From positions 46,128,001 through 46,192,000 of the forward strand of contig CM114271.1 of assembly GCA_050084515.1 (NCBI GenBank): 64,000 nt of DNA, given 5' to 3'. Below, piece by piece: positions 1-24,901 of this stretch (the first letter of the stretch is position 1; each line of letters begins with the position of its first letter). Below the pieces are notes generated by a model. That model did no database searches, had not been told where the DNA came from, and saw only the letters and a list, made by a program, of their open reading frames with translations. A program made the position numbers and the translations under genes. This DNA is from Blasia pusilla. Taxonomy: Eukaryota.

Positions 1-1155
1 CTCTTATGCTTGCAATAGGGCCAAATGGATAAGCCTTATCCATTATTGATAATATTAATATAAAAATATTATTATTATTTCCTGATATCTCCGTCACATT
101 TGCGATAATTTGTCACCGTTGCGCATTTCGGTCCCCGGGAACTAGCCTCTCTGGCCGTTCAGTTTCTTTTTCTATGAAGTCAAGGTCGAAGGAGCTCTAT
201 AGGATCCCCAGGTACGGTTTGTAGAGCTGTATCCTAGATCTTGAGCCCCATTGACATAACTATGGGTGACCTAACAATCATAGCATAAATATCTACGATG
301 GGATAAGCAAAGATGCCCGCTACACCCGCGATAGAGCGTGCCATGGCTTCGCTTGGTGTTGTGTTGCTGGAAAACGGGGGAGAGGTCTTCCACTTGGTGA
401 GTCCACGAGGTAGGGGTTTTAGTCCGCAACGCGTCTTGTTGGATTAAGGAACGCAACCCCTGATGTTGGGGAAAGCGGTTTCAGAGGATTGGGCTTGACG
501 AGAGCCAATATGGAGCGTTGTCCATCTTGGATACATACATCCTTGGATGGAGCGAGTACCACACAATATATCACATGAGAGGAGGTCATGGTGAGGATTC
601 GGCTAGGACATGCTACAGATGAGTCAGTGGTACAAGCCAAGGCGATAGTGACTCATGCAGAGTCCTACGACGTCTTTGTTGGTGGAGCAGTGTTTGTACC
701 CGATGGGGTTTTCATTGGATTACTGGGATGAGGCAGCGTCCTATAGACCAGTATGGCAGTCCGGTGATGGACGTCTTTGTTCATTACCAGTTTGATTCAC
801 ATGTGCTGTGATCGAGCAACGGCCAGGAGAGCTGACGACCTTAGCAGCATTTAGCAGCGCCATCACTTGGCCTAGTGATTCGATTGAGGGACATGTTCAT
901 GCAGAGGATACTCCCATTCTTGACATTTCTATGGAGAGGAGTGTCATGGTCGCTACATCATTCCATGGAGGAGAGGTGCCGCTTTGGGGTCCGATTGAGG
1001 AGCTTCAACGCTTAGCCACTGAGCATGTGCAGACCGCGTGGAGCGAGACGTTTGCACGAGAGCGTGACGGGTCAGAGGAACCCGAGGTAGCCGAGAGTGC
1101 TATGATGACGCCCTTGGATACCACACCCATTATGTGGTGCGTTCCAGAGGAGGAT

Positions 1156-2100
1156 ATTCGTGTGCTTGATCTCTTTGGCGGGATTAGCACTAGTGTAGCT
1201 ACTGTTTTGCAGGCTGGAGTACGCGTGCAACAATACATATATGTGGAGATTGATGATGTTGCAAGGCGCGCTGCACTTCACCATGTGGCATTTTTTTTTC
1301 CCGACTTTTTGTTTGCGTCCACTTTCCAAGGATACCAAAGTTCCCTACCAAGGGATATTGCATTGTTGGGGGCGTAGGACTTGGAGCGGGTAGAGACCGT
1401 AGACTTGGTCATTGCTCGTTGGCCGTGTCAGGGCCAATCGAGTGTTGGACAAGGTAGTAGGTTAGCTGACACTTGGTCTAGGTTATTTTGGGAAATGATG
1501 CGGATTTTACGACACTTGCAGGAGCATTGGTCCCGTTCTCCAACATATATTATGGAGAATGTGCCGATCTTGGGAGATTCAAGGTCACGGGTGGTGACGA
1601 GTGCACATCAGGTGCATGCATGGATCAACTCAGCAATATTTTTGGATGTGGCAAGTGTAGATTCTAGAGCACACCGCTCGCGTCTTTGGTGGACCAACTT
1701 GGTGCCACACGAGGTATTGCGGAGGGCATATCCGCGGGTGGAGCGCCCCTCCTAGTTGTTGGTGGATTCCATATTAGATCCCGTCCGTTGATCACAGGCA
1801 GTGAGGCACCATGATCGATCTTTGTTGACTGTGGTCAATAGGATTGGCATGCCACGGGCAAACTTCCCCATGTTGTGAGTTTTCCCGCTTCCTATACATT
1901 CAAGGAGGTTGCGTTTGGCTTGGTTTGGGATTACCAGGTAGAGCAATTGGTGGAGCCCAATGCCGATGAGCAAGAGCAAGTGATGGGATTCCCCACAGAA
2001 GTGACGATACTACGGAAGTATCGTCACTATCAGAGGCATCACGAACGTCATGTCTTGGGTCAGACAATGGACCTGAACTGCTTGATATGGATTTTTAGCT
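1156..2100 (+). pseudogene. DNMT3-like C5 cytosine methyltransferase domain in copy B (stops/frameshift)
   Basis: Motifs in unpermuted order: I VLDLFGGIS, II YVEIDD, III DI, IV WPCQGQS, VI ENV, VIII AHRSRLWWTN, IX EQEQVMGFP, X VLGQTMD. Confidence 0.9.
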
Positions 2101-2441
2101 TAGGAGTTGCTGAGCAGCGTCGTTTGACATTGCGACAGATTACAAGTGTTGCATTGGTGAGCCCCATGCCTACCGAGACGGTTGAGGCAGTGGCTGGGGG
2201 CGAGACTCGAGGAGATCGATACACCATGGGTGATTGGGAGAGACACCCTTGGACTTCTTGGGATGTTTTGCAAGTATGCTGGGAGATGATAGCCACAACA
2301 TTGAGCATCATTTCGGGTACTGCATATGGAGATCAGTTTTTGCAGTTGGCTATAGGGGAGCAGTCGAGTAGTACTGTCATGGACGGGGTTGCACCATAGC
2401 AACCACCAACACCTTGGCCAAAGAGTCCTACCATAGTCACG

Positions 2442-4839
2442 ATGGAGAAATGGGAGCCAGATATGGGCCCTAAGTTGACAGGAGGAGACCCGTGCCGGAT
2501 ACACCAGTTCCTAAGGAGTTATAGCAGTTGTATTACATTTAGTATGCATGATTTGGATACGCTTAAGGGTCTAGGGATCCGCATTGAGTTGTCAAGTGAC
2601 ACGCCGATCTTCCGACGACCCTACATGTACGGTGACATGGAGAGGGCTATGATTCAGAGTAGGAGCCACAACTTCGTTGGAGCAAGACTAATGGAGATGT
2701 CGCATGGAGAGTATGCATCTGCCACACATGCCCCAAAGAAGGATGTGCATGGCAACTTGACAAATAGGCGGATGTGTGGAGATTATCGACCTATCAATCG
2801 GCAGACAAAGTCTGATAGGTATGCCATGTCCACCCGTGAGGAGATCTTTGATGCTATTGGGCACGCAAAGGTCCCCAGTTCGTTAGATCTTAGAGTCGGA
2901 TACCATCAATTGCCCGTCAGATTGGAGGAAGACGAAATTTTTGGGCATCGATCCTCACGGGAAGGATTGCTTGTACTAGTGGCGGTTCTTACCATTTGGG
3001 TTAAAGAACGCCCCGGATGAGTTTCAGAGGGTCGTAGATAGGATCTTGGCACGTTTGGATTTTGCTAGGTATTATATTGGTGATATCGTAGTCTTTAGCG
3101 CCACGATTGAGGAGCATGAGCGACATCTAGAGGTGGTGTTGTGACGATTGCAGTAACATGGGCTGAAGCTATATCCAGGCAAGTGCAAGTTCTTCTATGA
3201 TAGATTGAGTACCTGGGTCATACCATATACCCATGTGGCCTTGATCTGTAGCACACAAAGGTAGAGGCTATTTCACTCATTCCACGCCCTACAAATGTGA
3301 GTCGGGTTTGTGCATTCATGGGATTGGCAAACTTCTATTGACAATATGTCAAGGGTTTCAATTTGATTTCAAAGCCGTTGACCTTGTTAACCAAGGTGGA
3401 TCAAGAGTGGCACTGGGGGGATGAGTAGGAGACAACATTTTAGCTGCTCAAGGGTAGATTGACCTCCGCGCCCATACTGAGGAGACCGATCAGGGGAGTT
3501 CCTTTCCAGTTGCATACACATTGGAGCATGTAGGGGCTTGGAGCCGTGCTTACCAACATGACAATGAGGGTAGAGAGTTCGTGGTGGCTTACGCTAGTCG
3601 CTCGAACAATGATGCAGAGGCGAAGTATAGCTCGTATGAGGGTGAGTGCTTGGCTGCAATGTGGGATGTCGCGCTTTTAGGTGTTATCTATTCGGAAATC
3701 CCTTAACCATCATTACTGATCATCAGCCAATTAAGTGGTTGATAGAGTTTGACAAGCTTACAGGGAAGCTTGCAAGGTGGGCTCTTTTGGTGCATGAGTA
3801 TGACTTCTAGGTGGTGCATAAACTTGGAACGCTCACTTCCAGGTGATGCATAGACCTGGAACGCTCAACAGTTTCGGTGGGAGGGGACACATGTGTTGCG
3901 AGTGTGGGAGAATGGTAGAGTACGTGTAGTTCCTCATCCTTCATAGAGAGCATGTTTGGTGCATCATGCCCACGAGGAGTTGGGTCATTTTGGAGTGAGG
4001 CGGACGTACAACTTGCTCCACATACAATATTGGTGGCGAGGCATGCAGACTGACGTTCAGCAGTTTGTTATCAGGTGTATGGTTTGTGATCGGGTCTGGG
4101 CATTGGTCAATGCTCCGACTCCATAGTTGCATCCACTTCCTATCATGGGTTTAGGTTATAGATGGATTTTGGATTTTGCAAGAACTTTGCCTTTGATGGA
4201 GCGCCATAGTCGTTATGTGTTGGTGATGGTCGAGCACTTCTCAAAGTGGATAGAGTTGGTTGCATTTCCTGAAAAAGCGAGTGAGGGAGTAGCGTATGCC
4301 TTCCTAGATTGAGTGTTCAGTCATTACGGTGCACGAGCTGAGGTGTTGATAGACCAGGGTACATAGTTTTGCAGGAAGTTTCAGGCCTTATCTGATCAAG
4401 CACTGATTGACCACTACACCACTTCGCGAGACCATCCTGAGGCGGATGGACTAGTAGAGAGGGTTGTGTAGACGATGAAGAGAGGATTACGCAAGTATGC
4501 CTTGCACAAAGGTCACCTAGGAGATTGGGACCTTCACTTGCCCTGGTTGGCAATGGGATACAGATTCAATATGCAGGCATTCTTATCGTCTTTCTCACCG
4601 TACTTGCTACTTTATGGCCGAGAGTCGGATTTACTTGCGGCCATTCGACGAGATGTTGGTGAGGTGTTGAACCTTGATAAACCTGATGTATGGATGCAAG
4701 CACGTTCTTAGAGGACTGAGTTATTTTGGAGAGTGATGCCCATGGCGTTTGAGAACTTAGCGATTGTGCAACATCGAGATACGTTGAGGTATGCGACTAT
4801 TCAAGGAGATGGTTATCGACATACTATCTGGAGGTTTCA
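2442..4839 (+). pseudogene. RT - RNase H - integrase of copy B (many stops/frameshifts)
   Basis: ORF fragments 2442-3020, 3521-3706, 4127-4312 and 4475-4711 match the RT/RH/INT fragments of copy A. Confidence 0.9.
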
Positions 4840-4967
4840 TATCGTGCGCATACACATCGCTACATAACATACATTGCTGTCATCGAACACACATAAAAAC
4901 ACACACGATCCCATGCTAACTCATGGCATCCATACACAGAGGCGAGAAGTGCCAAAATATCTCTAAT
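4840..4967 (-). repeat. Terminal repeat B2 of copy A
   Basis: Direct repeat of 5487-5597 (tcgtgcgc.tacacatcg...ccaaaatatctc.aat); absent from the element's other end. Confidence 0.88.
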
Positions 4968-5484
4968 TAAAGTAAGATCCAATCTCTCTCTACACCATCT
5001 CAGACCATAGCTCTCAAAGGTGTGCACTCTCTCTCATGTCAAACCAAACCCATTCTCCTCATGAGAGGCTTGGGTTACACTCACAAGGCAAGGGACCATA
5101 GCTCCGCCGCCTTATGCCAAGAGATTCAACAAAGAGAGAATGAGATCTCAAGCTCTCTCTCTCTCTTGGAGGTATACCCCCTTCCCTCTCCCAAGCCCTC
5201 TCAACGGTAACCTATGCTTGTAGGTCACCTCCTTGGCTCTTGACCTACTGTAGTGGGTCAAGGGACACTTCCCAAAGTGGAAAGTCAACTATCCATAACA
5301 TGGAAACTTACCCAAAATAGTAAGTTTCTCTATATGGCTACAAATGAGCTGAAACGAAGGGGAAACCTGCTCTCTCAGGTTTCCCGGGGCCTCAACAGGT
5401 CATCCTCGACCTCTTGGGCCTGTCCTCCACTACTCATGCAGTCGCTCTGCTAGATCCCATCGATCTATCCTAATAGTCGTAACA
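4968..5484 (-). repeat. Terminal repeat A2 of copy A
   Basis: Direct repeat of 14457-14979 (taaagtaagatccaatctc...tagtcgt(a/g)aca). Confidence 0.92.
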
Positions 5485-5486
5485 GT

Positions 5487-5597
5487 TGTCGTGCGCGTAC
5501 ACATCGTTGTCATCGAACACACACACAAACACACACGATCCCATGCTAATTCATGGCATCCATGCACATAGGTGAGAAATACCAAAATATCTCCAAT
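5487..5597 (-). repeat. Repeat B1 of copy A, preceded on the sense strand by a purine-rich tract
   Basis: Repeat of 4840-4967; sense strand reads TAGGGAGGCG then ATTGGAG; separated from A2 by 2 nt. Confidence 0.88.
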
Positions 5598-5771
5598 CGC
5601 CTCCCTAGCTGGTGGTTAGGTCCCTCTAACTCCAGATAGCCATCTATCTCTACCTACCACGACATACATCTCTAAGACGCTAAGAGCAGAAAGGTCGGGT
5701 GCTCATGTGGCCCCATCGTTAGTCGCCTTCCTATCATCCATATCATAGAAAAAGTCAGAATCTAAACCTAC

Positions 5772-5927
5772 CTAGTATCTCCTCTGTGTACATCTGGGAC
5801 ACATCCATCGTCCCCGAGGAACCCTAGTGAGAGGTGGCGTCAGACATGCCATATGCCAACCTCTCGAACATCCATCACAGACTAGCATTGTGGCCGCACC
5901 ACGAGCAGAACCTCACAACACACAACG
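5772..5927 (-). pseudogene. PHD finger at the integrase C-terminus, copy A
   Basis: Translation past the TGA at 5913: CVL*GSARGAATMLVCDGCSRGWHMACLTPPLTRVPRGRWMCPRC, a C4HC3 pattern. Copy B has Cys at the stop position (CMLC). Confidence 0.9.
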
Positions 5928-7060
5928 CAAGCCTGCAGGAACTACTACTGAGCTTGGATCTATTGTACCATCAATGTTAGGAATGTGACATGGCGCACAA
6001 TTGCGCACATGGTCCTTCCATACCATACCATCGCGTCCCTTCAACAAGAGAACAGCGGAGGGCAAAACGTCACGAACTCTCAGGATAGTGCGCCCTGCAC
6101 TCACATCCAACGTCGTCGGTGCTATCTGCTGCAAGTAGACATAATCTCCTTGATGAAACCTCCAGATAGTTGGTCGATAACCACCACCCCGAATAGTCGC
6201 ATACCTCAACGTATCCCGATGCTGCACAATCGCCAAGTTCTCGAACGCCATGGGCATCACTCTCCGAAATAACTTAGCCCTTTGAGAACATGCTCGAATC
6301 CATACATCTGGGTCATGAAGGTCCATCACCTCACCAGCATCTCGACGAATGGCCGTAGGCAAATCTGGCTCTCGGCCATAAAGTAGCAAGTACGGTGAAA
6401 AAGATGCTAAGGATGCCTGCCTGTCTGCTGAATCTGTATCCCATCGCCAACCACGGCAACTGGAGGTCCCAATCTCCTAGGTGACCTCTCTGCAAACCAT
6501 ACTTGCGTAAACCCCTCTTCACCGTCTGCACAACTCTCTCCGCTAATCCATCCACCTCGGGATGATCTCGCAAAGTCATGCGGGGGTCGATCATCGCTTG
6601 ATCACACAAGGCCAGGAACTCACCGTGAAACTCGATACCCTGGTCTGTCAACACCTCAGCTGGTGCGCCATAATGACTCAGCACTCTGTCAAGAAAGACA
6701 TAAGCTACTCCCTCACTCGCTTTGTCAAGAAATGCAACCAACTCAATCCACTTCCAGAAGTGCTCGACCATCACCAACACATAACGATTGTGATGCTCCG
6801 TCAAAGGCAAAGGTCCCGCAAAATCCAAACTCCATCTATAACCTAAGCCCATGATCGGTAATGGATGCAACTATGGAGTCGGAGCATTGAACGATGCTCG
6901 GACCTGATCACACTCCATGCACCTGGCAACAAAATGCTAAACGTCAGTCTGCATGCCTCACCACCAATACTCAATCTGGAGCAAGCTGTACGTCCGCTTC
7001 ACTCCAAAATGACCCAACTTCTCGTGGGCATGACGCACCAAATTTGCTCTCTGCGAAGGA
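5928..7060 (-). pseudogene. DDE integrase (HHCC zinc finger, catalytic core, C-terminal region), copy A
   Basis: H..LGHFGVKRTY..C..C, WSLDFAGPLP, VLTDQG.EF, DGLAERVVQTVK in ORFs 6331-6870 and 5913-6389. Confidence 0.92.
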
Positions 7061-7137
7061 TGAGGCACTACACGCACTCTACCATCTTCCCACACTCGCA
7101 ACACATGTGTGCCCTCCCACCAGAACCGTCTGGCTCG

Positions 7138-8846
7138 TTACAAGATCCGATCTCGCTCTCTAGACCCCACTGTGCTCGCGACGCTGCCAGTATGCAGGTA
7201 CTCCAAGACCACTCCATCGTCGTGAATGTCTCGGCCACGTGTCGTCTCCTCACCGACCTCTGGATCTAAGGACTCTCCAACAGACCTCGCCATCAAAGTC
7301 TCCGCAATCTGGCTCTCCATAGCCAACAAGCCCAAATAGGCTGACGCATGCCATCCTGGCACCAACTCCTCATCACTCTCACCATGCCAACGAGCTCCAA
7401 TCGCATCTCGCTGACTCGCGCATGGGTTATGGCTTAAACCATCTGCATCCCGGTTGAGCGTCCCAGGTCTATGCACCACCTGGAAGTCATACTCCTGCAA
7501 CAAAAGAGCCCACCTTGGAAGCTTCCCTGTAAGCTTGTCGGACTCCATCAACCACTTAAGTGGCTGATGATTAGTAATGATGGTAAAGGGATTTCCGAAT
7601 AGATAACATTTGAAATCTGCAACAGCCCACGCTACAGCCAAGCACTCACCCTCATACGAGATGTACCTCGCCTCTGCAGCGTTGTTCGAGCGGCTAGCTA
7701 AAGCCACCACAAACTCTCTACCCTCATCATCATGCTGGGTGAGCACCGCTCCAAGCCCCAACATGCTCCAATTTGTCTGCAACTGGAAAGGACGCCCCCT
7801 GATCGGTCTCCTCAAGATGGGCGAGGACATCAACCTATCCTTGAGCAACTGAAATGCTCATTCTTGCTCATCCCCCCAGTGCCACTCATGATCCACCTTG
7901 GTCAGCAAGATTAGGAGCTTCGCAATCGAACTGGATCCCTTGAAGTTTGCCAATCCCATGAATGTACGAACACGGCTCACATCTGTAGGGCGTGGAATGC
8001 ATGAAATAGCCTCTATCTTTGTCTATTGCACACCAAGGCCCCCAGGGTATATCGTATGATCCAAGTACTCAATCTGGTTGTAGAAGAACTTGCACTTTCT
8101 GGATGTAGCTTCATCCCATGTAACTGCAATCGTCGAAACACCTCCTCTAGATGTCGCTCATCCTCCTCAACCGTGGCGCTAAAGACTACAATGTCATCAA
8201 TATAACACCTAGCAAAATCCAGACCAGCCAAGATCCTATCCATCACCCTCTGAAACTCAGCCGAGGCGTTCTTTAATTCGAATGGTAAGAACCGCCACAG
8301 GTACAAACAATCCTTCCCGTGAAGATCGATGCCCCAAAATGCCGTCTTCTGCATGGCCTCCAATCTGATAGGTAGATGAAGGTATCCGGCTCGCAAATCC
8401 AATAAACTGAAGACCTTTGCATGTCCAATCGCATCAAATATCTCCTCAGGGGTGGGCATGGCATACCTATCGGCCTTTGTCTGCTGATTGACATGTCTGT
8501 AATCTCCACACATTTGCCTATCCGTCCAGTTGCCATGCACATCCTTCTTGGCGGGCATGACAATGGCAGATGGATACTCTCTATGCGACATCTCCACTAG
8601 TCCTGCTCCAACCAAGTCTTGGCTCCTACTCTGAATCAGAGCCTTCTCCATGTCACTGTACCTATAAGGTCGCCAAAAGATTGGCGTGTCACTCGACAAC
8701 TCAATGCGGATCCCTGGTCCCTTTAGCGTACCCAAATCCTCCATGCTAAATGCAAAGCAGCTCTTATATCTCCTCAGGAACTGATGTATCCGGCGCCACT
8801 CTCCTCCTATCAACTTAGGGCCCATATCTGGCTCCCAAGTCTCCAT
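7138..8846 (-). pseudogene. Reverse transcriptase and RNase H, copy A
   Basis: MCGDYR, LDLRAGY, LPFELKNA, YIDDIVVFS; RNase H ECLAVAWAV, LPRWALLLQEYDFQVVHRPG..N..ADGLS. Confidence 0.95.
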
Positions 8847-9179
8847 CGTGACTACAGTAGGACTCTCCGGCGCGGGTATCGGTGGTTGCTATGGTGCAAC
8901 CCCGTCTCGAACAAAAACACTCGGCCAACTGCTAACTCTGATCTCCTCCATGTGTAGTGGCCGGAACCACGCTCGATGCTTTGGCTATCATCTCTTGGCG
9001 TACCTGCAAAATATCCCAAGAAGTCCAAGGGTGTCTCTCCCGATCTCCCTAGGTGTGTAGATCTCCTTGGGTCTCGCCCCCAGCCACTGGCTCCACCGTC
9101 TCGGTAGGCATTGGGTCACCAACGCAACCGTTGTGATCTATCACGATCTCATATGGCGCAGCTCAACCACTCCCAAGTA

Positions 9180-9980
9180 GAGGATCCATGTCAAGCAGTT
9201 CATGTCCATTTCCTGACCCAAGATATGGCGTCGTGATGCCTCTGACATTGACGGTACTGTCGTCACTCCTGTGGGAAATCCCATCGCTTTCTCTCTCTTT
9301 TTAGCGTTGGGCTCCACCAACCTCTGAACCTCGTCATCCCAAACCAAGCCAGGACCGGCCTCCTTGTACAAATGGGAGGGGTGCTCCACTCTCTCATACG
9401 CCGTCTGTAACACCACATGGGGCACCAAGTTGATCCACCATAGACGCGGGCGATAGGATCTAGAACCTACACTCGCCGCATCCAAGAACACTATTGGGCC
9501 CATCCAGGCAAGCACCTGATGAGCACTCATCACCACCCGTGACCTGGAGTCTTCTAGGATCGGCACATTCTCCACAATGTAGGCTGGAGAACGAGACTGG
9601 TGCTCTTGCAACTGCCGTAAGACCCTCAACATCTCCCAAAAAAACCTGGACCAAGTGTTAGCCAATCCATTGTCTCGTCCAGCACTCGATTGGCCTTGAC
9701 AAGGCCAACCGGAAATGACCAAATCAATGGTCCCTACCCGCTCTAAGTCATGCGCCCCCAACAACGAAATATCCCTCGGTAGGGGACTCTAGTACCCCTG
9801 TACCGCGGACGCAGACAATAAATAGGGAAAACGTAGGCATAATTGCACCACATGTTGTAGTGAGACGCGCCTCGCAACATTATCACTCCCCACATACAGG
9901 TACTGTTGCACTCGCACTCCTACCTGCAAAACAGCAGCTAACATGGTGCTAATCCCTCCAAAGAGATCTAACACTCGAAT
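9180..9980 (-). pseudogene. DNMT3-like C5 cytosine methyltransferase domain, copy A
   Basis: VLDLFGGIS, GWPCQGQS, YIVENVP, YRPRLWWIN, EKAMGFPTGVT, ILGQEMD; ORFs 9789-10328 and 9141-9764 are in frame, split by one TAG. Confidence 0.92.
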
Positions 9981-10399
9981 ACCCTCCTCCGGGCTACACC
10001 AAAAAATAGGTGTGGTATCCAAAGGTGTTATTGTAGCACTCCCTGCTACCTCGGGTTCCTCAGACCCATCACGCTCTAGTGCAAATGCCTCGCTCCACGC
10101 TGTCTGCACGTGCTCATCTGCCAATCGTCGAAGCTCCTCACTTGAGCTCCTCAACGATATCTCTCCTCCACGGAATAATGCGGCTACCATAACACTCCTC
10201 TCCATAGAAATGTCAATAACGGGAGTATCCTGTGCATGGACATGTCCCTCAATCAAATCACTAGGCCAAGTGATGGCATTGCTAAATGCTGCTAAGGTCG
10301 CCATCTCTCCTCGCGGTCGCTCGATCACCGCACCTGTGAATTGAACGGGTTATGAGCTAAGGAGCCCATCATCTGACTGCCATCTTGGTCTGTAGGACG

Positions 10400-10742
10400 C
10401 TGACTCCTCCTAGTAATCCAAGGAAAACCCCATCGGGTATAACACCACTCCACCAACCAAGACGTCGTAGGACTCTACATCAGTCACTATCGCCTTGGTT
10501 CACACCACGGACTCATGTGTAGGATGTCTCGGGCGAATCCTCACCATGACCTCATGTTGGGTGATATACTGTGTGGTACTTGCTCCACCCAAGGATGTCT
10601 GTATCCGGAACGGACAACGCTCCACATCGGCTCTCGTCAAGCCCAATCCTCTAAATGACGCTTTCCCCAACATCAGGGGTTGCGCTTCTGAATCCAACAA
10701 GACACTTTGCGGACTAAAAGCTCTACCTCTGGGACTCACCAA
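10400..10742 (-). pseudogene. Retroviral-type aspartic protease, copy A
   Basis: VLLDSEAQPLM (degenerate DSGA) followed by YDVLVGG. Confidence 0.8.
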
Positions 10743-11399
10743 TTGGAAGATTTATCCTTGTTTATCCAGCAACACAACACCAGAAGAAGCCATGGCACGC
10801 TCTATCGCGGGTCTAGCGGGCATCTCCGCCATCCTAGCAGCCGCAGCCTGCTATGAATCTGACGTGGACGGCCTGAGCATCTGCTCCAAGGGCAGGTCCA
10901 TCACCTCCTCTACAATCACCTCTGAATGTGATGCAAGAACTCCAACTCCGCGCTCGCATAATGAAGCGGCCAGCCGAAAAGCCTCCATGGGCGTATCCCC
11001 CAACGTCATAACATCGGAAGCAGAAAATAAAGGAGTGCGATACACAACGGTGGCCGCCCCCAACAACGTGCTCGATACATGCCCCTCCTGAGCATCAACA
11101 ATAGGAGTCGTCGTACTCGCTTCTCTAATTGCCCTCCATGCTTGCACACCAACAACATCACCAACTCTCCAAGAACTTTGATGAGGACCCATCGATGGGG
11201 TCCTCATCGCTTCGAACAACGTGAAAGACTGAGGAAGCCTAGTATGTTTTCTGGATTCCTCTCGATGTGGATCCAACTCTGCGGCTGCTCCACACGTCAC
11301 AACAGTGGCGGCCTCCATCTAGGCAACCCTGCACATCCAACCAGGATCCTACATATCTGTGGCTGCTCCCTATGATGTCGATGCCACGGATCCGGCATC

Positions 11400-13010
11400 G
11401 GATAACCTCAATGCCATAGCGGCAATCTGCTCTTGTAGCTGTTGTATCTAAGCATCCATCCTAGCCTCACGTTCGGTGTTTTCCTCGACGCGTCTAGGTG
11501 GTGGTACTCCAACGGGACTACAAGGTGCACGATCTATAGGCCCACCCGGACCGGCTACTTGCGCTGGTGCCCTCTTTGGCCCTCGGTCCGGACGTAACTC
11601 AAGATGTAAATTGAAACATATGGCGCGTATATGACCATACCTCTGACAATAGTCACATTGATAACCTCTTGGTGCAGCACCATCTCCTCCTCCATTCTGA
11701 GGAACATGTCCATGAACTTGACGAGTGCAATCGCGCTGATAATGGGCTCCACCACATGACCAACAAGTAATAGTAGGCGGCTGCTGGTGAGCCGCATATG
11801 AAGGCGCAGGTCTCTGTGGCATGGCCTCCCGATATCCTCTCTGAGCTCGTGGTGCCACAGTCGCACTATCTCAGAGTCCACGTTGCTGCAGAGGTGGTGC
11901 AGCCAATCGTGACTCCTCTCGCCCAGAACCCATGGTGGCTACGCTCTCCTCCACCATGTTGCGCTCAATGTTCTCGACGGTCCTAAAAACATCTCTCAAC
12001 ATAGGGGAGGTGTTCATAAGAAGCACCCCCTCCCGCACCCGTGTCCGCAGGTCCGGCCCAATATCGCGTACCATGACTGGACAGCCTGAGCCTCCGTCAC
12101 CCCCTGAGTGACGTTGATCAACCGGCGCAAGTGAGTGTAAGCCTTGCGCAAACTCTCACCTGGGCGCCTCTGGAAGTCGTGGATGCTCCGCAACTTCTCC
12201 GTCCGTACCCCCTGGTAGCTGGCCCTCAACTCAGCAAAGAACTCAACCATGGGGTTGAACCTGGGACGAACCCGACTAGATGGTGCAACTACTCGAGTCC
12301 GAGAGACCCCTCCTAAAACATCACTAGTGGAAGAGGAAGTAGCCTCTCTTGACTCCTCCTCCTCATCTTGGAACGGCTCCGTCCATGACACATAGAATGG
12401 GTCATAGTAGAGTCGCCATGCCTCAATCTCCTTGGCATATATGTGGGAGAACTCATGGTAATCATCCATGGGCGCCCCCTCTAAATGCTGGAACATATCG
12501 TTCCATGTTGTAAAAGGGTTGAACTCTCTAGAGTTCTTGGCCTGTTGGGAGTCGCACCAACTCCTAAACTCTGCTATGAAATCGTGCAACTCAATCGTGC
12601 CTACTGCACCTGAAAACCTATGTAGTCCTCTATCCCGATCATCCATCTCGTACGCCCAACTGGTAGGACCACTCACAATGTATGGCGATGTGCTTACAAA
12701 ATCCTCTTCACCCTCCCCCTTGTTTGACAATGGCACAGAAGGAGGTCGAGGTGGTCCCTCACGTGGAGACCCACGGAACCTCGTGCCACTCCGCGTAAAA
12801 CCTCTAGAGCTACTCTCAGGTTCATCACCTCGCCTCTCAAAGTCTCGAACAGACGCCGTGATGACCCTCGTGCCCCTCTCACCCGATCACTCTCAACCTT
12901 GCGAGTAATCCCTCAATCACTCATCCCAAGCATGCGGCAGTCCATCTACATTCTCCCTCCCCGAGACGTATAACGTGTGGCAACACGCGGCGTGGTGCGG
13001 CTAATCGACC
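11400..13010 (-). pseudogene. gag with two CCHC zinc knuckles, copy A (start uncertain)
   Basis: CWSCGGAHYQRDC and CDYCQRYGHIRAIC; gag-like FQRRPGESLRKAYTHLRRL. Confidence 0.85.
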
Positions 13011-14456
13011 AAGCTATTATCTCATCGACAACCTACCCTTAACTCCGGACATCTCATGCAGGTCTATGTCCCCTAAACCACATACATGAATGATGCTCTC
13101 AGCATCCACACAAACCAATATCCCCAAATAAACTACCCAAATCCTAGAATCCCTCACACGTGTAGGGTAAAGGACCAGAATGGGTAACCTGAACACATGT
13201 TGATGCTGCTCCTCAGCAACTGCAAATCTTGACCCCAACTCGGTGGTGAAGAAAAATCCTCCAATCAGCAAGTCGTACTCCTTTCATACTGACGCTGCTC
13301 AACCTCCTCGATGTGCGGTGTAGGTCGAGTAGTCCGGTGCAGCACTGGAAACGCGGAACCGCTACAAACAGCATGGCACTTGGGAATTGGGTGCGGCAGT
13401 TGGCGGCATACCCTCCTCAATCAAAAATTCACACGCTCTGATCCTTAATGAAGGAAGGGTTCCGCGATCAAGATGGTGCGGTGTGGCCACTAGCGGCACA
13501 GCGCACCAATCGGCGGCGCGTTGCGGCTACGGGCGTCAAAGACGGTACTCAATCGACGTCGAGCGGTTACCAATCACAACATAGCAGCATGAAATCAAAA
13601 CTCAAACACCCTGACCGGAGGTTATCTGCCATCACTGGTTGATGATGACATTGCGATGACGGTGGCGGCCAAAACAAAGTACATGGTGGCGACGCAAGTT
13701 AGAGAATCAAGGAACGTCGTGGAAGACCCTCCACTCCGTAATGGCGGTAATGGCAACCAAAGGGTGGACAACGGACGGTGGACCGTTGACAGTGACGGTT
13801 GACCATTGATGGTGACGGTTGACCGATGACGGTGATGGTTGACTATCAACGGCAAACCGTTGATGGTGACTATGACGGCGGCGGCCACCGCCAGCGTGGC
13901 GGCTGTTTTAGGGTTTGAACAATTTAACCCTAAAAATTGCCTAGCAATGGCAATTTTACAAGATTGACCATAACTTTTTGCTCGCAACTTTAAATTACGC
14001 ATTGTTTATTGCACAACGTGCACAACTTCATGTTCTACGATAGCGTCAAAAAAAATTTAGAATCACAAATTTCAATAAAAATTGACGGGGATTGTCGTAA
14101 AGCCCAATGTCTCTTTCTCCTACACAAAATTTGGCAGCGCTTCGGCGCTGATTTCTTCCAACGAAAATGTAAGACGTGTAAAAAATCAAATCAGCAAGCT
14201 AGATGGTGCTCCCGAGAGCGCTGGCATGGGGCAACCTGCCCCCATAATCAATCCCTATCAAAAATTGGGCAGCGCTTCCGCACGCCACTCTTCCACACAA
14301 AAAATCGGCAAATGCAAAGAACAATCAAAGCAGCCCTTGCTGCGGTGAGCACTCCCATGAGCCGCTGAATGGGGAACACGGTCCCCAACCTGCCAAAACA
14401 GCGAGTGACCAGCGAGCTCCCCCATGAAGCTCTCTCACTCTCTCATTCTCTCTTTG

Positions 14457-14979
14457 TAAAGTAAGATCCAATCTCTCTCTACACCATCTCACACCATAGC
14501 TCTCAAAGGTGTGCACTCTCTCTCATGTCAAACCAAACCCACTCTAATAATGAGAGGCTTGGATTACACTCACAAGGCAAGGGACCACAGCTCTGCCGCC
14601 TTATGCCAAGAGGTTCAACAAAGAGAGAATGAGCTCTCAAGCTCTCAAGCTCTCTCTCTTGGAGGTATACCCCCTTCCCTCTCCCAAGCCCTCTAAAAGG
14701 TAACCTATGCTTGTAGGTCACCTCCTTGGCTCTTGACCTGCTGTAGCGGGTCAAAGGCTACTTCCCAAAGTGGAAAGTCAACTATCCCCAACATGGAAAC
14801 TTACCCAAAATTAATTATATATATATATATAGCTCCAAATGAGCCGAAACGAAGGGGAAACCTATTCTCTCAGGTTTCCCGCGGCCTCAACAAGTCATCC
14901 TTGACCTCTTGGGTCTGTCCTCCACTACTCGTGCAGTCGCTCTGCTAGATCCCACTGATCTATCCTTATAGTCGTGACA
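14457..14979 (-). repeat. 5' terminal repeat A1 of copy A
   Basis: Matches 4968-5484. Not followed by B sequence or by a TGG-type tRNA primer site (next bases on - are AAGAGAGAATGAGAG). Confidence 0.92.
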
Positions 14980-14983
14980 TTCA

Positions 14984-16217
14984 TCAGGGAGACTATGTGT
15001 ACTCGCAGCACACAACATCCACGACATTGGATGTGATTGCAGGGCTTACCATCTTGAGAGTGCATGAGATTTTGCCATCTAGTGTTCTCTTATTAGAGGG
15101 ACGCGATGATATGGTTTGGAAGGACCATGTGCGTAATCGTGCGTCATGTCACCTTCCTAACATTGACGATACAGTTGATCCGAGCCTAGCAGTAGTTCAT
15201 GCAGGCTTGCGATGTATGTTGTGTGGTTGCGCCCGTGGTGCAGCTACTATGCTAGTCTATGATGGTGTTCGAGAGGATGGCATATGGCATGTTTGACGCC
15301 ATCCCTCAGTAAGATTCCCGAGGGACGATGGATGTGTCACAGATGTACATAGGGTAGGTAGTTCTAGATTCCGACTTGTGTCTGTGATATGGATGAAAAG
15401 AAGGCGACTAACGATGGGGCCATATGAGCACCCAACCTTCTTGCTCTTAGCGTCCGAGAGATGTATATCATGGTAGGTAGGGATAAATGGCTATCTAGAG
15501 TTAGAGGGACCTAACCACCAACTAGGGGGGGGGGGGATTGGAGATATTTTGGTACTTCTTGTCTCGTTGTTTGGATGCCATGAGTTAGCATGGGATGTAG
15601 CGATGTGTATGCGCACAAGAGCTGTCACGAATTTTTAGGATAGATCGAAGAGATCTGGTAGAGCGCCTTCGCGACTAGAGGCGGACAGGCTCACGAGATT
15701 GAGGATGACCTGTTGAGGTCATGGAAAACCTGAGAGAGCAGGTTTCCCCTTCGTTTTGGCTCATTTGGAACTATATAGACAAACTTACTATTTTGGTAAG
15801 TTTTCATGTTTGGTAGAGTTGACTTTCTATATTTGGAAGTGACCCCTGACCCGCTTCAGTAGGTCCAGAGTCAAAGAGGTGATCTACGAGCATAGCTTGG
15901 GAGAGGGAATGTGATATACCTCAAAGAGAGAGAACTTCAGAACTCATCCTCTCTTTGTTGAACCTCTTGGCATGAGACGGCGGAGCTATGATCTTGCGTG
16001 GAGCCAAGCTTATCATTAAGAGAGTGGGTTTGGTTTGACATTAAGAGAGACATGTGAAACTGCATCTTAGATTATGGTGTTGAGAGAGATTGGATCTATT
16101 TGATTTATTGGAGATATTTTGATATTTTTTATCTCGTTATTTGGATGCCATAAATTAACATGGGATCGTGTGTATTTATGTGTATGTTTGTCGACAACGA
16201 TGTGTATACATACGACA
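14984..16217 (+). mobile_element. Copy B right part: integrase C-terminus, PHD remnant, PPT (15524-15536), B1 (15537-15620), A2 (15623-16106), B2 (16107-16217)
   Basis: ORF 14997-15296 matches copy A INT/PHD; G-run precedes ATTGGAGATATTTT, which recurs at 16107; ends TACGACA. Confidence 0.9.
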
Positions 16218-17509
16218 AACCTCTTTGAGAAGACATTGTTTCAGTTCATCAAACCTCTTAGTCAACTACTCTTGATAGATGACCAAGAGGCTATGGTCTT
16301 GCTAGTTACAGATTGGTAGGATTCAAAAGTGGACCACAACTTGAGCTTGTAGAGACCTAGTGAGAGGTCTGCATGAAATGTGTGTTGATAGCAGATGGGG
16401 TTCTCAAGGGGAGAGTAAGTAGACTGATGGATCTCATTTTCCTAGACTCATCTGCCAACATTCTCAATCAGATCTCAACCTTCTAGGCTTGGATTCTCAT
16501 GAAGAGGGTGATGAGATGGACAAGATCAACAAGCAAGCTTCAGATCTCGGAGCCCAAGCCTCTTCCACAAACATCAAGAACCAGCCAGAATCAGAAGCAG
16601 CTCCACGACATAAGATCCACAAAAAGTCAAGTTTTTTAGATGAAGCCACCGTGAAGAAAGATTGACTATTTAAGTTATTGGAGTTCAGATTCAGAGACTG
16701 AATGATAGAGACCATCCATTTACGTGAATCTACCATCAGAATCCCGGATGAACTCTCTGGGAACCACTATCCTCAATACAACCCGTCCTAAAGTTTCTAA
16801 ATCAGTGGTATCTCTAAGAGTCGACATTTGGTTCTGGCTAGCCTCAGTGCTGCAACCAGTATCGCCTGGAATTTTGATTTTTTTAGCAACTGATGTGATG
16901 GGGATGGAAGTTGACAAGACACCAGATAGAAAATACTACAAAAAGAGTGAAGAGTCCGTATGGCGTTAAATTTGGCTCACATCTCCATTCAATCCTACAG
17001 CTTATCCCCTTGCATTTTGCAGCCTCTGCAGTTTGAATCAAGTTGGCATCCAGAGATGACCAAAATATGTGGCAGCAGGAGAAAGAGAACCACATAATAA
17101 GGCCTAGTAGTGGCCCTAAATCTTGTAATTTCCAGTATCATGGTCCTCTTAGTTTCCTTACAGAGTAAATCACTTCATTCTTTCATTCCCATGGCAGGAA
17201 AAAGTTCGTTATGTGTGATTAGAATCAATTCAGCCATTGGAATTGTTAGATGACTGAGACAGAGCTTAAGAAATGACGTTCAAAAGCAGAATCAGTTCAG
17301 TGAACATGGCATTTCAATGGATTTTGAAAAACTGTGGAAAGAATCAACAGAGATTGCCTTGAATGTTTCTAGAGACCAGGGATGCTAAAATTTGTTCAGA
17401 CGTTATGATATACACTGAACATCAATTCCAAGATAATGCCACTAAATAGGCTTTGTACGAGAGATGTAAATATTTACAACAAAGAATAAATTTGGCAATT
17501 ACTCTACAG

Positions 17510-20500
17510 TCACTCTAACTGTCCACTTCCACCGAAGATAATAGGCTTCAAAAAATAGTACTGCTCAAATCTTTGTCGTGCATACTCCAAATAGTTGAAG
17601 TCTATATCCGATGTTAGGGCCTGTGAAATACGATGCACAATCAAATTTTTTTGCATGGTAAGCACTTGTCACTTTGCTACTGCTTAATTAAAGAATTGAG
17701 TACCTTAAGATCAAAGAAGCTAGTTAACAATAAGTGCGGCATCATAACACTTCATCTACTTGGGAAACCTGAGATGTGGCAATCCAAAATCATCCACTAT
17801 CTGAAAAGTTTGGATAGACTAGAAACACATTGCCTGCTTGAGAACATTGTCCTAGTATTGATAAACAGATTCTCCTCACAATTATATGGCTTCTTTATTT
17901 GAAAGAGATGATCTTCAAGCAACTTCTCGCATTGGCTTCGACCAGCAAATAAGCAGTTTGAATAGGAAATTAATGGGAGGTTGGTACTGCAACAACTCAC
18001 AGAAATGATTCCCCATAGACCCCACAGTAGATGACTGGCAAGTGTGTATGCATCGGTAGCCTTCATCAAATCTTCGATATCAGTCTCATGAACTGTCCCA
18101 TCTACATTGGCATCACAATCATCCACCGAATATTGGTTAGTTTCAACACACAAACTGTACTTTGAACTGTCGACATGATGCAATAAGATATCAGGACTCA
18201 ATCCTGACCTAACCTGCAGAGATCAATCCCTAATCTGTGAGTCTACACTGTTGTGCCTAGCTGTAGTGCATGGAGCTAAGGCTGAATGTGGAACAAGCAT
18301 CATTGCAGTGAAGCTTCCCCCAATGACATATGAAATATGACAAACACAGTTCTCACCTAGAGCTTGTAGGTAAACTGTAATGAATATTCGACGCTCTTCA
18401 TAATCTGTGCCATGAAGGATCACATGCTAAACTCATTAAAATTGATAGGCAATGATTCACTGGTGGTATGAACATGGAAGCATAAGTCAAAGCCCTCCAT
18501 AATAACAGCATTAGGAAGCAGACATCAGTTGAGCAAGCATCACACACTGACTCCATTTGAGCGTATTCCTGTACCAAAGTTGGCCAAAAGTCTTCATAAG
18601 CATGCCATCATTCTGCAGTCAATGCCACTCTACAAGTATCATCTAACGCTACCCTACCATGGCAGCAGATGGCAGGAATCGGCAGAAAGAAATTGCAAAA
18701 AGAGTTCTTTCTTTGGAGCTGATATCTGCCATGGAGAGTCCAAACATTCAGATGAAGGGAGACTTAGAAGTTTGCACTTCTAGTCCCATTCAATCTATAA
18801 TATGCATCATTAGATCCACTTATTGTTCTTCTAGTTGTGGACCACACGGTAGCTGTTCATGAAGACAATCCAGTCATGAGTTTCAGTCACACAAATGTGC
18901 ATTCATCATTCGTTTCACCAAGAGAAGGTTACTCACGAGGAAATTTGCCATAATCCAGGATGTGAGGTGTATCTGTGTGGTAGTCGGCAGCCATTTCACA
19001 AAAGTGGTTAGCGATGTCAAATGCAACTGGGTTGAAACTTGCGTACTCATAGTCCTGTTACACGACAAACACAACATGATCAGGCTAAAAGCTTATTACT
19101 TCTTGTGAAGAGTCGTCATTTCACACAATAGCCCCACAATTGAAGAGACGTACTAAGAGGTGATAATGAATGAGAAGTGCAAGAAGCATAATTGCTGCTA
19201 CAACCAACCAACGAAGAGCCCTAGTGCCAAACAACCAGCTTGCATCCTGCATGGCCAGAACATTGAGTGAAGGAGAGAACCTACAATGATAGTGATGGTG
19301 TTATCATTCTCGTCGATCATGACATTCCCGTACTGCAGATCATTGTGACAAAATCCAATCATTTCGTCTGGCGTTCGTATTCTTTTCTCCAGTTCAGCTA
19401 TCTCTTCACTTAAATGATGCAGCCGAAATTCCACTATATGGCTCGTGCTGGCCCTCTTCAAAGTTTCATCTAACCACAAACTGCTGAGGGGAACACGGAT
19501 TACTCAGATGACCAAATCATTCCAGTCGAATGAGACGGGTGGCGTTCTCCTGTGGCTCGGAACGGGTACTTTCTCAAGATGATTTCTACACGTCCAGCTG
19601 AGATTGTAATATTTTCAAAGAACACACGAAACGAATCGACCAACGCAAGTGCAGTCAAAGAGCATCAACCTGAGGCGTTGCCATAGAAAGGGCTGTGCTG
19701 CTCCGGGCATGTCGAGTCCATGGAATTCCCTCAGCTTCACGGCAATCTGGTTCGACACTTCGGGGACCCGCAAGTCTGCAGCCGACAAAGTCTGCTCCGC
19801 CCACAACCCAACAAAAACAGATCAGAGAGCTGCGACAACGTCGAGCAATGCTGTCGACAATCTGAGTCAGTGAACCTGATCCCAGTCTCCAATGAGCAAC
19901 GGTGCAATGGAAAACTCTGGGTGCTTCGTATCCAAGCTCTCTCCCGAACTCCCCTGGCTCATCATGGCCAGCCCCATGGACAATTGCCTCAAACGACACC
20001 GCGCAAGGATAAAGAACGGCAGAGCCTAACTAGTTCATTGGAGAAAGTGTACGATAACTAGTTCATATTGGAGAAAGTGTATGGGCGGGTGTGGACTAGA
20101 GTTGGAAGTGTTGTAGAACGGGGATGTTCACCGTTTGTAGACAAGAGTTGGGCAGTGTCGATTACACATCCGCTACCAAATGATAGCCCATTTCACTTCT
20201 GACCGTCAGAGATAAACTGCAATGAGCTGTACCCTGGCATGGAGAAACTCTTCGACGCGGCCGTTGTGAAATCTAGCGAGCAATTGAGGACCTTGTCCCT
20301 GCTGAGACATCCTCTCGAACGTCAGAATTTCGCTCTCTCTGCTGAAGAAGAGCTCTGAGCTCTCTCCATACACACGCACCAACACCTTCCTGGGCTTCCC
20401 ACGGTGCTTCTTCGACGCCCAGAGACACTCGAAGACTTGATTGGTCATGGCACCCCTCAGTGGCTTCAGAGACAGGTTGCGGTAGCTGGAAATGTCGGTC

Positions 20501-20798
20501 CAGTTTTTGGCTAACCTGAAACACAGCACATCCATCAGCAGAAGGAAGCACTGGAAAACTGAAAAAGAAGCATGAATTCGCCTTCCATCTGACTGCCTGC
20601 ACCGAAATTCTTCTCCCCGGATACGACTCTGCAGTCGCCTTCGGACTCGCAACCAGGCCCTGCACCCTAAATTGCAGCAACGCTCTACATCTATCAAAAC
20701 GAAACCCCACAAGCCATCGAGGGAGAAAGAAATGTACCGGTGCAGAACGGCATACGCTTCCACTGGAATCTCCCAATCATCATCCAAGCTTCCAGCAC
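17510..20798 (-). CDS. Choline/ethanolamine kinase; exons approx 20798-20738, 20515-20233, 19791-19670, 19480-19285, 19054-18937, 18404-18357, 18101-18001, 17620-17510; start codon not located
   Basis: [37 protein letters not shown] (Brenner motif), [41 protein letters not shown] junctions with consistent phases. Confidence 0.9.
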
Positions 20799-21256
20799 CT
20801 GCTCCAGCCACAATCACCGTCGAGTCAGTCAACCACGCGAATTACCATTCCTCACTGCGAATTCGATTCACACAAGTCTGCGAACCCCATTGGCCTCCTC
20901 CAGACGGCGCGGAGCCAACAATTCCACTCACTCGGAGCTTCGTGGATGTCATACCTAGTGGAACAGCGCGCAACGCCAGGTCGTCCATATACGAGCACAA
21001 CTCCATAATTCACCCTCTTCCCTCCCCTCGAAACCAATAACAGATTAACCACCACCTGCACTCTTCTGCTCCGTTCCAGACTCGTCCTTCTCCTGCTCCT
21101 GCTCCTTTTCCTTTTCCTTGTCCTGCTTCTGTTGCTGCTACTGCCGACTTAGGCCAGCGAGACGGAGACGCTGTGGGCTCTCTCTCTCTCTCTCCAGAGA
21201 ATCCTGTCTAGCGAATTATCTCTGCATAAATCTCTCTCGGATCCTCCTCTCTAGCG

Positions 21257-23667: not shown

Positions 23668-24827
23668 AATCATGCACATACACATTGTTATGCAACAAAC
23701 ATTGTTGTCACCATCCATACACTTATAAAATAAGTCACCCTACCAATAATGAAGTTCGTACATTTCCAACGATCGTATACCAAAAAGATCTCCAATTTCT
23801 CCCCTTAGTGATGGTTACGTTCCTCTAATCCAATATAGACATCAATCCATTCTACTATGGCATATTCCCTAGTGATATTAAGAGGAAAAAAGTTAATGTT
23901 CTCATGTGGCCCTATTGTTAATTTCCTTATTATCATCAATATCACTCAAGCAAATCCAGATCTATAATTACCTTTCTTATGTACATCTTGGACATATCCA
24001 TCATCCCTAGGAAACCTTAACTAGCAAGAAATGGATCTAAACATGCATGCCATGTGCCACCTTCTCAAACACCCATCATAGATTGGCATGAGAGTCACGC
24101 CTTTGGCCGATCCACACCACATACAACGTCAACTTGCATATACCACCACCAAGAATGGGTCAGCCGTTCTAGCAATGTTGGTGTTGCAAATAGTTAAGTC
24201 TATGGTGTCAGAGACTCGAGAATAGAGTCATGATATTGGGTCAAAGATAGAGAGACCTTGGTGTGACCCACCAAAGATAAAACCTAGACTAGCTAGTTAC
24301 AAGACTACAAAGGGCAGTAAAACTTATCGCAAGACTAACACTAGTCAAAATGGGCTTGCATGCACCTTGAGACTAATCTTAGAAGATACAGGGCGTTACC
24401 ACTCATGAATATGAGGGTGAGGCCAAAAAGGGATAAGACCCTTAAGATGAGTTCCGAATGAGGGGTGAATAGTTAGGAAGATGGGAATGACCAAGAAGGG
24501 AAAAATACCATGCATGTAAGACTAGTCACAAAACACAAAAAGCGGGAAGACAACACTACGACGCCAAATGGTGAGAGTCAAGATGGGCTCTAGACATGAG
24601 ACATAAAAAACATACGGTAAGGTTCCAAGATCTATATGAGTTTGGGGAAGTCAAGATGGGCAGAATCTGCCAAGAGACTTCCCAAGTCATCTACAGCTTT
24701 GACTAATCAAACGCGGGCTAGCGAGACACAGACCACATTTTGGTTGTGGACCAAATCCAAAGGCCCAAAGTGGAGGATGGGAGAGGTGTGGTTCTTCTAG
24801 TGAACCCTATAAGTGACTATGGGGAGG

Positions 24828-24901
<74 letters not shown>

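Follow-up and report, generated by a model that had tools for sequence, protein, structure and literature searches.

The 64,000-nt window analysed here (Blasia pusilla, GenBank assembly GCA_050084515.1, contig CM114271.1, positions 46,128,001 to 46,192,000 of the forward strand) contains a complete but decayed retroelement of 10,140 bp, which we call copy A, on the minus strand at window positions 4840-14979. In general, retroelements are sorted into long terminal repeat (LTR) elements, with equal end repeats and a DDE integrase, and DIRS-type elements, with split or inverted repeats and a tyrosine recombinase. Copy A's family crosses this divide. Read in its own direction, copy A consists of a repeat A1, a leader of 1.8 kb, a coding part (gag, protease, DNMT, reverse transcriptase (RT), RNase H, integrase and PHD finger, in this order) that is interrupted by stops and frameshifts, a G-run, a repeat B1, the dinucleotide AC, a second copy of A (A2) and a second copy of B (B2).

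The repeats were found by self-comparison of positions 3000-20000 of the window, which paired 4960-5484 with 14449-14979 (~525 nt, 91-94% identity) and 4871-4967 with 5501-5597 (97 nt, 89% identity). A1 comprises 523 nt (14457-14979, minus strand) and starts with TGTCACGAC; its border at 14457 was kept, the extension to 14449 in the self-comparison being a chance AGAGA match. No B lies directly 3′ of A1 in copy A. At the other end, also on the minus strand, the order is B1 (111 nt, 5487-5597), which ends in CGCACGACA, the 2-nt spacer AC (5485-5486), A2 (517 nt, 4968-5484), which starts with TGTTACGAC, and B2 (128 nt, 4840-4967), which carries a small internal duplication and whose terminal CA is mutated to TA. 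B1 is adjoined by a conserved block, GGACCTAACCACCAGCTAGGGAGGCG (5598-5623, minus strand), with the G-run at its end, a candidate polypurine tract. The joint between B1 and A2 reads CGCACGACA-AC-TGTTACG, and the same joint with a GC spacer is a perfect palindrome, GACAGCTGTC, with GACA-GC-TGTC as its core. An earlier reading, made from the letters of the window only (the sequence-only reading), had proposed A1 alone at the 5′ end, polypurine tract-B1-A2-B2 at the 3′ end and a B1/A2 joint made of the right terminus, 2 nt and the left terminus. The self-comparison bore out these repeats and their coordinates, and the joint was confirmed in both 3′ ends at the locus. The length and identity of the repeats, together with the same layout in independent assemblies and in raw reads, exclude chance. 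Copy A's family therefore has the A...B-A-B split repeats of the DIRS order; the two equal LTRs of Ty3/gypsy elements are absent from it, A standing alone at the 5′ end and B-A-B at the 3′ end.

Copy A is a later insertion in an older copy of its own family. Positions 311-4840 and 14980-16203 match the interior of copy A in the opposite orientation, with 78-85% identity, and meet at one point. The left part of this host copy (311-4839, plus strand) runs from the DNMT to the integrase region, its 5′ end lying beyond the window, while the right part (14980-16217, plus strand) holds the integrase C-terminus and PHD region and then the 3′ end, with the G-run at 15526-15536, B1 at 15537-15620, a GC spacer, A2 at 15623-16106 and B2 at 16107-16217. 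The sequence-only reading had treated this second 3′ end as that of an independent element; the same polypurine tract-B1-A2-B2 end is indeed there, but it belongs to the host copy that copy A interrupts. Copy A is flanked by a duplicated TGAA, at 14980-14983 on its 5′ side and at 4836-4839 on its 3′ side (ATGAA when the ambiguous terminal A is included). The host sequence reads ...CTGATGAA before A1 and ATGAAACCTCC... after B2, and the homologous uninterrupted site within copy A reads CTTGATGAAACCTCC. The nesting and the duplicated TGAA thus identify the start of A and the end of B as the ends of the element as integrated. A third, more diverged partial copy (23670-25739, minus strand) consists of the integrase C-terminus, the conserved block and a single B, followed by unrelated sequence.

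The coding content was read from three frames translated through stops (X at each stop). On the minus strand, a gag-like region (11616-12649) with two CCHC knuckles (11727-11765 and 11616-11657) is followed by the motif LLDSEAQPLMLG at 10665-10700 (LLDSEAQ; LLDSSAQ in the related locus L048), which we take to be that of an aspartic protease and which had no Pfam match. Then come a DNMT3-like C5 cytosine methyltransferase region with the motifs DLFGGIS, GWPCQG and ENV and one in-frame stop (9114-10493), a reverse transcriptase (RVT_1, 8097-8513, with YIDD at 8184-8204), RNase H (RT_RNaseH and RT_RNaseH_2, 7489-7878), an integrase (6574-7059) made of an H2C2 zinc domain (6895-7059) and an rve DDE core (6574-6840), and a C-terminal PHD finger (5790-5900) in the place that a chromodomain takes in chromoviruses. 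The methylase region matched PF00145 (E 2e-10). When its profile was compared with the PDB, DNMT3A, DNMT3B and DNMT3C entries occupied the first 29 of 32 rows (best E 1e-13), and a DRM-type ‘DNA methyltransferase’ entry and M.HaeIII came after them. The Pol order, RVT_1, RT_RNaseH, RT_RNaseH_2, Integrase_H2C2 and rve, is that of Ty3/gypsy elements, with the methylase inserted between protease and RT and the PHD finger following the integrase. There was no Phage_integrase match, the sign of a tyrosine recombinase, in the three read-through frames at E <= 0.01 or at E <= 0.001, and no Chromo match in the frames of copy A. The gypsy-type element with a DDE integrase that the sequence-only reading had recognized is thus present, and the C5 DNA-methylase domain and the PHD finger are additions to its list of domains.

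Proteins matching the methylase region came from Calypogeia fissa (53% identity), Marchantia polymorpha (48%) and several Sphagnum species (41-53%). Two more polyproteins, P0006 and P0007 (JGI, ENA records), have the order RT - DNMT - integrase - PHD, which indicates that the methylase sits at different places in related elements. A protein atlas search with the Marchantia relative gave a best score of 0.75 and no lead.

To collect further ends, metagenome contigs were scanned with an alignment of the methylase. This confirmed 124 relatives, of which 80 loci were kept; the 31 longest were compared with themselves, and A and B were mapped on all 80 (L048/L080 and L077/L078, at least, are the same loci seen twice). 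These relatives form a sister family, with methylases 38-58% identical, an A of 339 nt, a B of 115 nt and the ends TGTCATGACC...CGCACGACA. None of 25 5′ ends had a B beside A1, and A was followed by the same leader in 24 of them. B-A-B was present at seven distinct 3′ ends (L048, which is L080, L057, L064, L078, L009, L049 and L071), in agreement with the view, implied in the sequence-only reading, that A...B-A-B is the native form. In L005 and L073/L074 the contig ends after B-A; about ten loci (L018, L024, L025, L026, L028, L029, L033, L043, L046 and L061) have a single B followed by flank, and L008/L013 have one B on the other strand. Among nine elements with both ends, the 4-bp target duplication was perfect in six and kept three of four bases in the other three (L064, whose 5′ end is truncated, was left out and L080 was counted with L048). 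The short target duplication and the TG...CA-type ends, TGTCAYGAC...CGCACGACA, are those of a DDE-type reaction: the element was inserted by its own DDE integrase as one unit, from the start of A to the end of B.

The joint between A2 and B2 was identical in 8/8 loci. When 18 A1 and 8 A2 sequences were aligned (duplicates L080 and L077 dropped), 0 of 340 columns were specific to A1 or A2, a result compatible with homogenisation of the repeats cycle by cycle. Only in L057 were the A1 and A2 of an element each other's nearest neighbours, the copies being star-like and old, and the comparison of own pairs therefore provides no dating and supports no scheme. The single-B loci found an explanation in L024 (single B) and L071 (B-A-B), which have a common 3′ flank (95-99% identity over >5 kb) and a common duplication, TGTG. 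The common flank means that at least the single B of L024 is a deletion product; that is, single-B copies arise from A...B-A-B by deletion between B1 and B2 in at least one case. Between the two assemblies that hold this same insertion (L024 13483-18980, L071 8172-13255) the element differs by 8.7% and most of the flank by only ~1%, a contrast that suggests either that the element decays far more quickly (methylated C to T) or that the flank is under constraint.

Raw DNA and RNA reads of the same species were placed on the window (~1% of one DNA run, and three RNA runs). They show a family of high copy number that is transcribed in the sense direction. DNA depth was 900-2,500 across the whole element at a likeness of at least 85% from ~1% of the run, and RNA depth was 10-180 in the three runs, nearly all first mates lying on the plus strand, so that transcription runs in the sense direction of the element provided that the libraries follow the usual stranded design. 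The consensus of the 1,602 DNA reads that leave the end of B was CA, two nucleotides and the start of A, with an agreement of 0.45; this mixture of roughly half joint and half flanks is what B-A-B predicts. In RNA run X20 the agreement at the end of B rose to 0.74 (78 reads), which indicates that transcripts cross B1 into A2. The 2-nt spacer was AC in 24, GT in 15 and AT in 7 reads, and GC, AC, AT or TC in the contigs. Such variation could have meant that the joint is remade in each cycle; this idea was rejected, since all variants are transitions from GC within CAGCTG and decay at methylated sites is expected to produce them. A joint from 4949 to 5580 that skips 630 nt (346 DNA reads; 46, 83 and 36 RNA reads) is indistinguishable from cross-mapping between B1 and B2 and was not used as evidence of single-B copies. 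Taking the nested insertion, the collected ends and the reads together, we are confident that copy A is an old and no longer active member of a Ty3/gypsy-type family of high copy number whose native transposed form is A...B-NN-A-B.

Two further observations were made with the reads. At 4967, the A2|B2 joint, 489 of 1,724 DNA reads, and RNA reads too, have a 1-nt deletion exactly at the end of A and start of B, which is either a subfamily difference or variable joining. In the RT region, a joint between 7665 and 8721 that skips 1,055 nt was present only in RNA (12, 23 and 9 reads in the three runs, 0 in the DNA run) and lacks GT..AG ends; possible sources are unusual splicing, a template switch during library preparation or an expressed deleted subfamily.

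The sequence-only reading had considered the layout possibly uncatalogued. Gypsy domains with DIRS-like repeats are, however, already in print for KnitGypsy-Dnmt3 of the charophyte green alga Klebsormidium nitens, a Gypsy element with a Dnmt3-type methylase in its Pol open reading frame (de Mendoza et al. 2018, Nat Commun 9:1341, PMC5890265). The legend of Fig. 4c of that paper assigns its repeats to the DIRS element type and its domains to Gypsy, and the order A-coding-B-A-B is spelled out there for SymbioDIRS-Dnmt3. Literature searches for an A...B-A-B layout in integrase elements, or for bryophyte retrotransposons with a DNMT, returned only that paper and a remark citing it in a 2025 paper (PMC12344493), although supplements may hold more; for the name KnitGypsy-Dnmt3 itself, no description beyond the 2018 paper was found, the 2025 paper only citing it. 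In the main text of the 2018 paper, the description of KnitGypsy-Dnmt3 does not extend to termini, target duplication, primer sites or mechanism (PMC5890265). Copy A has in common with it a gypsy-type Pol, a Dnmt3-type methylase in the polyprotein, DIRS-like repeats and a streptophyte host, and differs from it in its land-plant host and in its nearest proteins, which are those of liverworts and Sphagnum (41-53%); the two are linked by description, not by sequence. On this description, copy A is a land-plant member of the kind that KnitGypsy-Dnmt3 represents. What is new here is the self-priming signature, the palindromic joint and the proposal of B-NN-A as the LTR equivalent, the layout itself being already in print.

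Copy A's family also resembles the PAT-like and Ngaro elements of the DIRS order, which have split direct repeats A1...B1-A2-B2 and an internal joint that repeats both termini. Unlike them, it has a DDE integrase (H2C2, rve), a 4-bp target duplication and TG...CA-type ends, and no tyrosine recombinase was found in the frames searched. Some PAT-like and Ngaro elements carry a methyltransferase as well (PMC7192593). According to de Mendoza et al. 2018 (PMC5890265), the DIRS methylases are Dam-like adenine methylases, whereas that of copy A is of the C5 DNMT3 type.

The sequence immediately after A1 was informative about priming. The first 15 nt, CAAAGAGAGAATGAG (14442-14456, minus strand), are the reverse complement of a site p within A1, CTCATTCTCTCTTTG (14619-14633, minus strand), that recurs in A2 at 5130-5141. 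Of the 8,848 12-mers in the interior of copy A, the four that start at offsets 1-4 after A1 are the only ones matched by a perfect reverse complement in A1; in L078 this is true of only 5 of 8,207, those at offsets 1-5. In the sister family, the first 16 nt after A1, CTCAAAGAACTATGTT, pair with AACATAGTTCTTTGAG inside A; pairing was 16/16 in L060 and L077/L078, 15/16 in L005, 12-14/16 in 12 of the other 16 copies compared and 10/16 or less in 4. The partner sequences differ between the two families and the complementarity is kept, as is the distance from the site to the end of A (174-176 nt in both), despite an A of 523 nt in one and 339 nt in the other. The pairing was present in minimum-energy and centroid folds (z -2.9 and -3.5), which were cut at the site and are thus biased towards it. 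The stretch after A1 is a candidate primer-binding site of the self-priming type, with site p as the candidate self-primer and possible RNA 5′ end, and the complementarity over 15-16 nt quite probably represents a Tf1-type self-priming signature.

In Tf1, the primer-binding site that follows the 5′ repeat is complementary to an upstream site of the same repeat (PMC7175516), and self-priming has been predicted for the Tcn1 clade in moss and club-moss (PMC6317226). Copy A is like Tf1/Sushi and Tcn1 in having such a site directly after the 5′ repeat. Unlike these elements, which have two equal LTRs and a chromodomain, its family combines split repeats with a PHD finger and a DNMT. The Phygy and Selgy lineages were dropped from the comparison, their elements being short and taken up by the polyprotein (PMC6317226). 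The sequence-only reading had stated that no tRNA primer site follows A1. A primer-binding site of another kind does appear to lie there, and the tRNA-independence it had suggested is favoured by the pairing over 15-16 nt in two diverged families. Aragorn predicted no tRNA gene in the window or in the 80 loci, so that these supplied no host tRNA to compare with the site. A motif ~115 nt into the leader of the metagenome relatives, TGGCGAGAGC, is presumably a poor fit to a tRNA 3′ end.

At the opposite edge of the coding part, the block CCTAACCACCAGCTAGGG with its G-run adjoins the first base of B1 at 23/23 places found, with a diverged form in the third copy. RNA reads showed loose ends at 5597 and 5633, which indicate that another expressed subfamily has only the conserved block in common with copy A. 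The putative primer site at offset 1 after A1 and the G-run at B1 therefore occupy the positions that the primer-binding site and polypurine tract have in Ty3/gypsy elements, beside the 5′ and 3′ repeats respectively, and their functions are presumed from these positions. The conserved block (5598-5623; 15505-15536; metagenome loci) also contains GGACCTAACCACCA, which in the sense direction is similar to the 3′ end of a tRNA, with acceptor strand, discriminator and CCA; ‘ACCACCA’ was set aside as a candidate of this kind, no partner site having been found by eye.

In the standard LTR scheme, the plus-strand primer fixes the left edge of the LTR and the minus-strand primer its right edge. Placed on copy A, these edges fall at the start of B1 and at the end of A1, which makes B-NN-A the LTR equivalent, an identification that we consider somewhat likely. 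Minus-strand synthesis would be self-primed, as in Tf1/Sushi/Tcn1, from the pairing site inside A, ~175 nt upstream of the end of A1, which would probably be the RNA 5′ end, and the plus strand would start at the conserved G-run adjoining B1. U3 would then consist of B, NN and the left part of A, and R-U5 of the last ~175 nt of A. The element may thus be seen as a circular permutation of a canonical [B-A]-internal-[B-A], in which the sites of the integrase would lie not at the edges of the LTR but back to back inside its equivalent, at the palindrome GACA-GC-TGTC, and in which the A2|B2 joint would be an LTR-LTR (U5|U3) joint. The integration substrate would contain this LTR-LTR joint, either from joined ends or as a template-jump copy, and would be opened at the outermost palindromic joints. 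On the whole we lean towards this permuted and self-primed account; that the integrase opens a joint-containing substrate is a more tentative part of it, and less likely than not. The sequence-only reading had suggested a non-canonical, possibly tRNA-independent route of reverse transcription. Its tRNA-independence is retained, but a wholly different route is not: the G-run and the primer site point to largely LTR-like reverse transcription, and the oddity would lie in the choice of ends.

Abutted ends 2-3 bp apart are actual or possible substrates of DDE enzymes in the circle junctions of IS3-, IS911- and IS30-type elements and in the palindromic junction of retroviral two-LTR circles. Unlike these junctions, which belong only to an extrachromosomal intermediate, the joint is kept inside every integrated element of copy A's family, and by analogy the integrase might act on it. 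Copy A's family, and by extension KnitGypsy-Dnmt3, might then exemplify a third way of making ends, that is, LTR-like self-primed reverse transcription followed by integration from a cDNA with an LTR-LTR joint (circular, end-joined or template-jump copied) that is opened at palindromic joints in an IS3/IS30-like manner; we regard this generalization as doubtful at present.

Several observations weigh against the permuted account or the affiliations given above. No canonical [B-A]...[B-A] copy was seen among the copies collected, nor was any A-B-A...B (0/25 5′ ends). If a symmetric two-LTR circle were opened at random, half of the products would be A-B-A...B; such opening was rejected as it stands, so that an asymmetry is needed for which the account offers no explanation. 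The placed RNA reads showed no clear RNA 5′ starts or 3′ ends, and no extrachromosomal form was observed, reads over a B|A joint being indistinguishable from those over the chromosomal B1|A2. The G-run is short and may be a pause or termination signal instead of a primer. Every copy examined is decayed, so that this exact layout may not itself be competent to replicate. As for the alga, a word-based search yielded no Klebsormidium protein among 44 (7 + 37) methylase matches, and kinship with its element at the level of sequence is putative. Finally, RNA spans the A2|B2 joint (depth 19-37 at 4967), a part of the RNA that the permuted-LTR scheme does not need.

That RNA is needed if the ends are restored as in DIRS and PAT-like elements and the product is then integrated by the DDE enzyme. 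Here, an RNA running from inside A1 to inside B2 would be copied end to end, the missing left A and right B would be restored by template switches on the internal B1-NN-A2 joint, and a linear A...B-A-B cDNA would be inserted directly. The layout is exactly that of PAT and Ngaro elements, and DIRS-1 needs an internal copy of its termini to restore the full element from a shorter transcript (PMC7192593); in copy A's family, sense RNA crosses both B1|A2 (the 78 reads of X20, agreement 0.74) and A2|B2. Such copying would explain without extra assumption why only A...B-A-B and never A-B-A...B occurs, and the invariance of the A2|B2 joint (8/8 loci) is expected if it is inherited via RNA. Yet it gives no role to a primer site exactly at the edge of A1 or to a G-run exactly at the edge of B1, it requires that the minus strand be primed at the 3′ end of the RNA or where A2 starts, for which no candidate was found, and parts of A and B copied straight would escape homogenisation, in conflict with the absence of A1- or A2-specific columns (0/340). 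We judge it rather unlikely, though only slightly less probable than the opening of a joint by the integrase. Purely canonical strand transfers do not serve either: when worked by hand with a primer-binding site at the start of A2, with A as the LTR or with B as the LTR, they gave A...B, B-A...B-A or B-A...B, and never A...B-A-B.

Two simpler explanations dispense with an unusual replication cycle. Copy A might be a deletion derivative of an ordinary LTR element (with A-B or B-A-B as its LTR) that lost a 5′ B and the primer-binding site, an alternative the sequence-only reading had itself set as a test. The window holds only one 5′ end, and deletions between short repeats do happen in the family, as L024 and L071 show. 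Against this, the target duplication puts the left end at the start of A, none of 25 5′ ends has a B on either side of A1, 24 of 25 lead from A into the conserved leader that starts with the primer site, and a relative with the same layout is published (PMC5890265); the test thus came out negative, and a derivative of this kind is extremely improbable. The basic unit might otherwise be A-internal-B without terminal repeats, B-A-B being secondary through insertion of a solo A-B or tandem duplication. In favour of such a unit, five of nine distinct metagenome elements with both ends are A...single B (L024, L026, L029, L043 and L046), with target duplications perfect or matching at three of four bases. 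The same insertion, however, is B-A-B in L071 and single B in L024, which points to loss, not gain; the spacer of the B1|A2 joint is always 2 nt long, and the joint lacks a target duplication; and, by the standard LTR scheme, an A...B RNA would lack a second R for the first strand transfer. This makes such a unit very unlikely.

The crossing of the LTR/DIRS divide is not limited to one alga: it occurs in a family that is abundant and transcribed in the genome of a land plant and that has relatives among liverwort and moss records. Its defined anatomy (4-bp duplication, palindromic joint, self-priming site at the edge of A1, G-run at the edge of B1, single-B deletions) yields replication schemes that can be tested, where the literature had offered a single line. 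If integration does proceed by opening of the joint, the family would stand as a living intermediate, with canonical LTR elements on one side and split-repeat tyrosine-recombinase elements on the other, and the A...B-A-B layout would be a property of the replication scheme, not of the recombinase. The DNMT3-type methylase and the PHD finger may also bear on how transposons shape or escape host DNA methylation.

Outside the element and its relatives, the window contains host genes and other repeats. A choline/ethanolamine kinase exon lies at 20206-20841 (minus strand), a UFD1-like/XAF1-type zinc-finger gene at 29635-31949 (plus strand) and an RNA-dependent RNA polymerase gene (RdRP, E 6e-132) with an RRM exon at 41969-46636 (minus strand). 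Short repeats, tandem or dispersed, that have no relation to the element are located at 27355-27934, 28751-28866 and 62431-63137.

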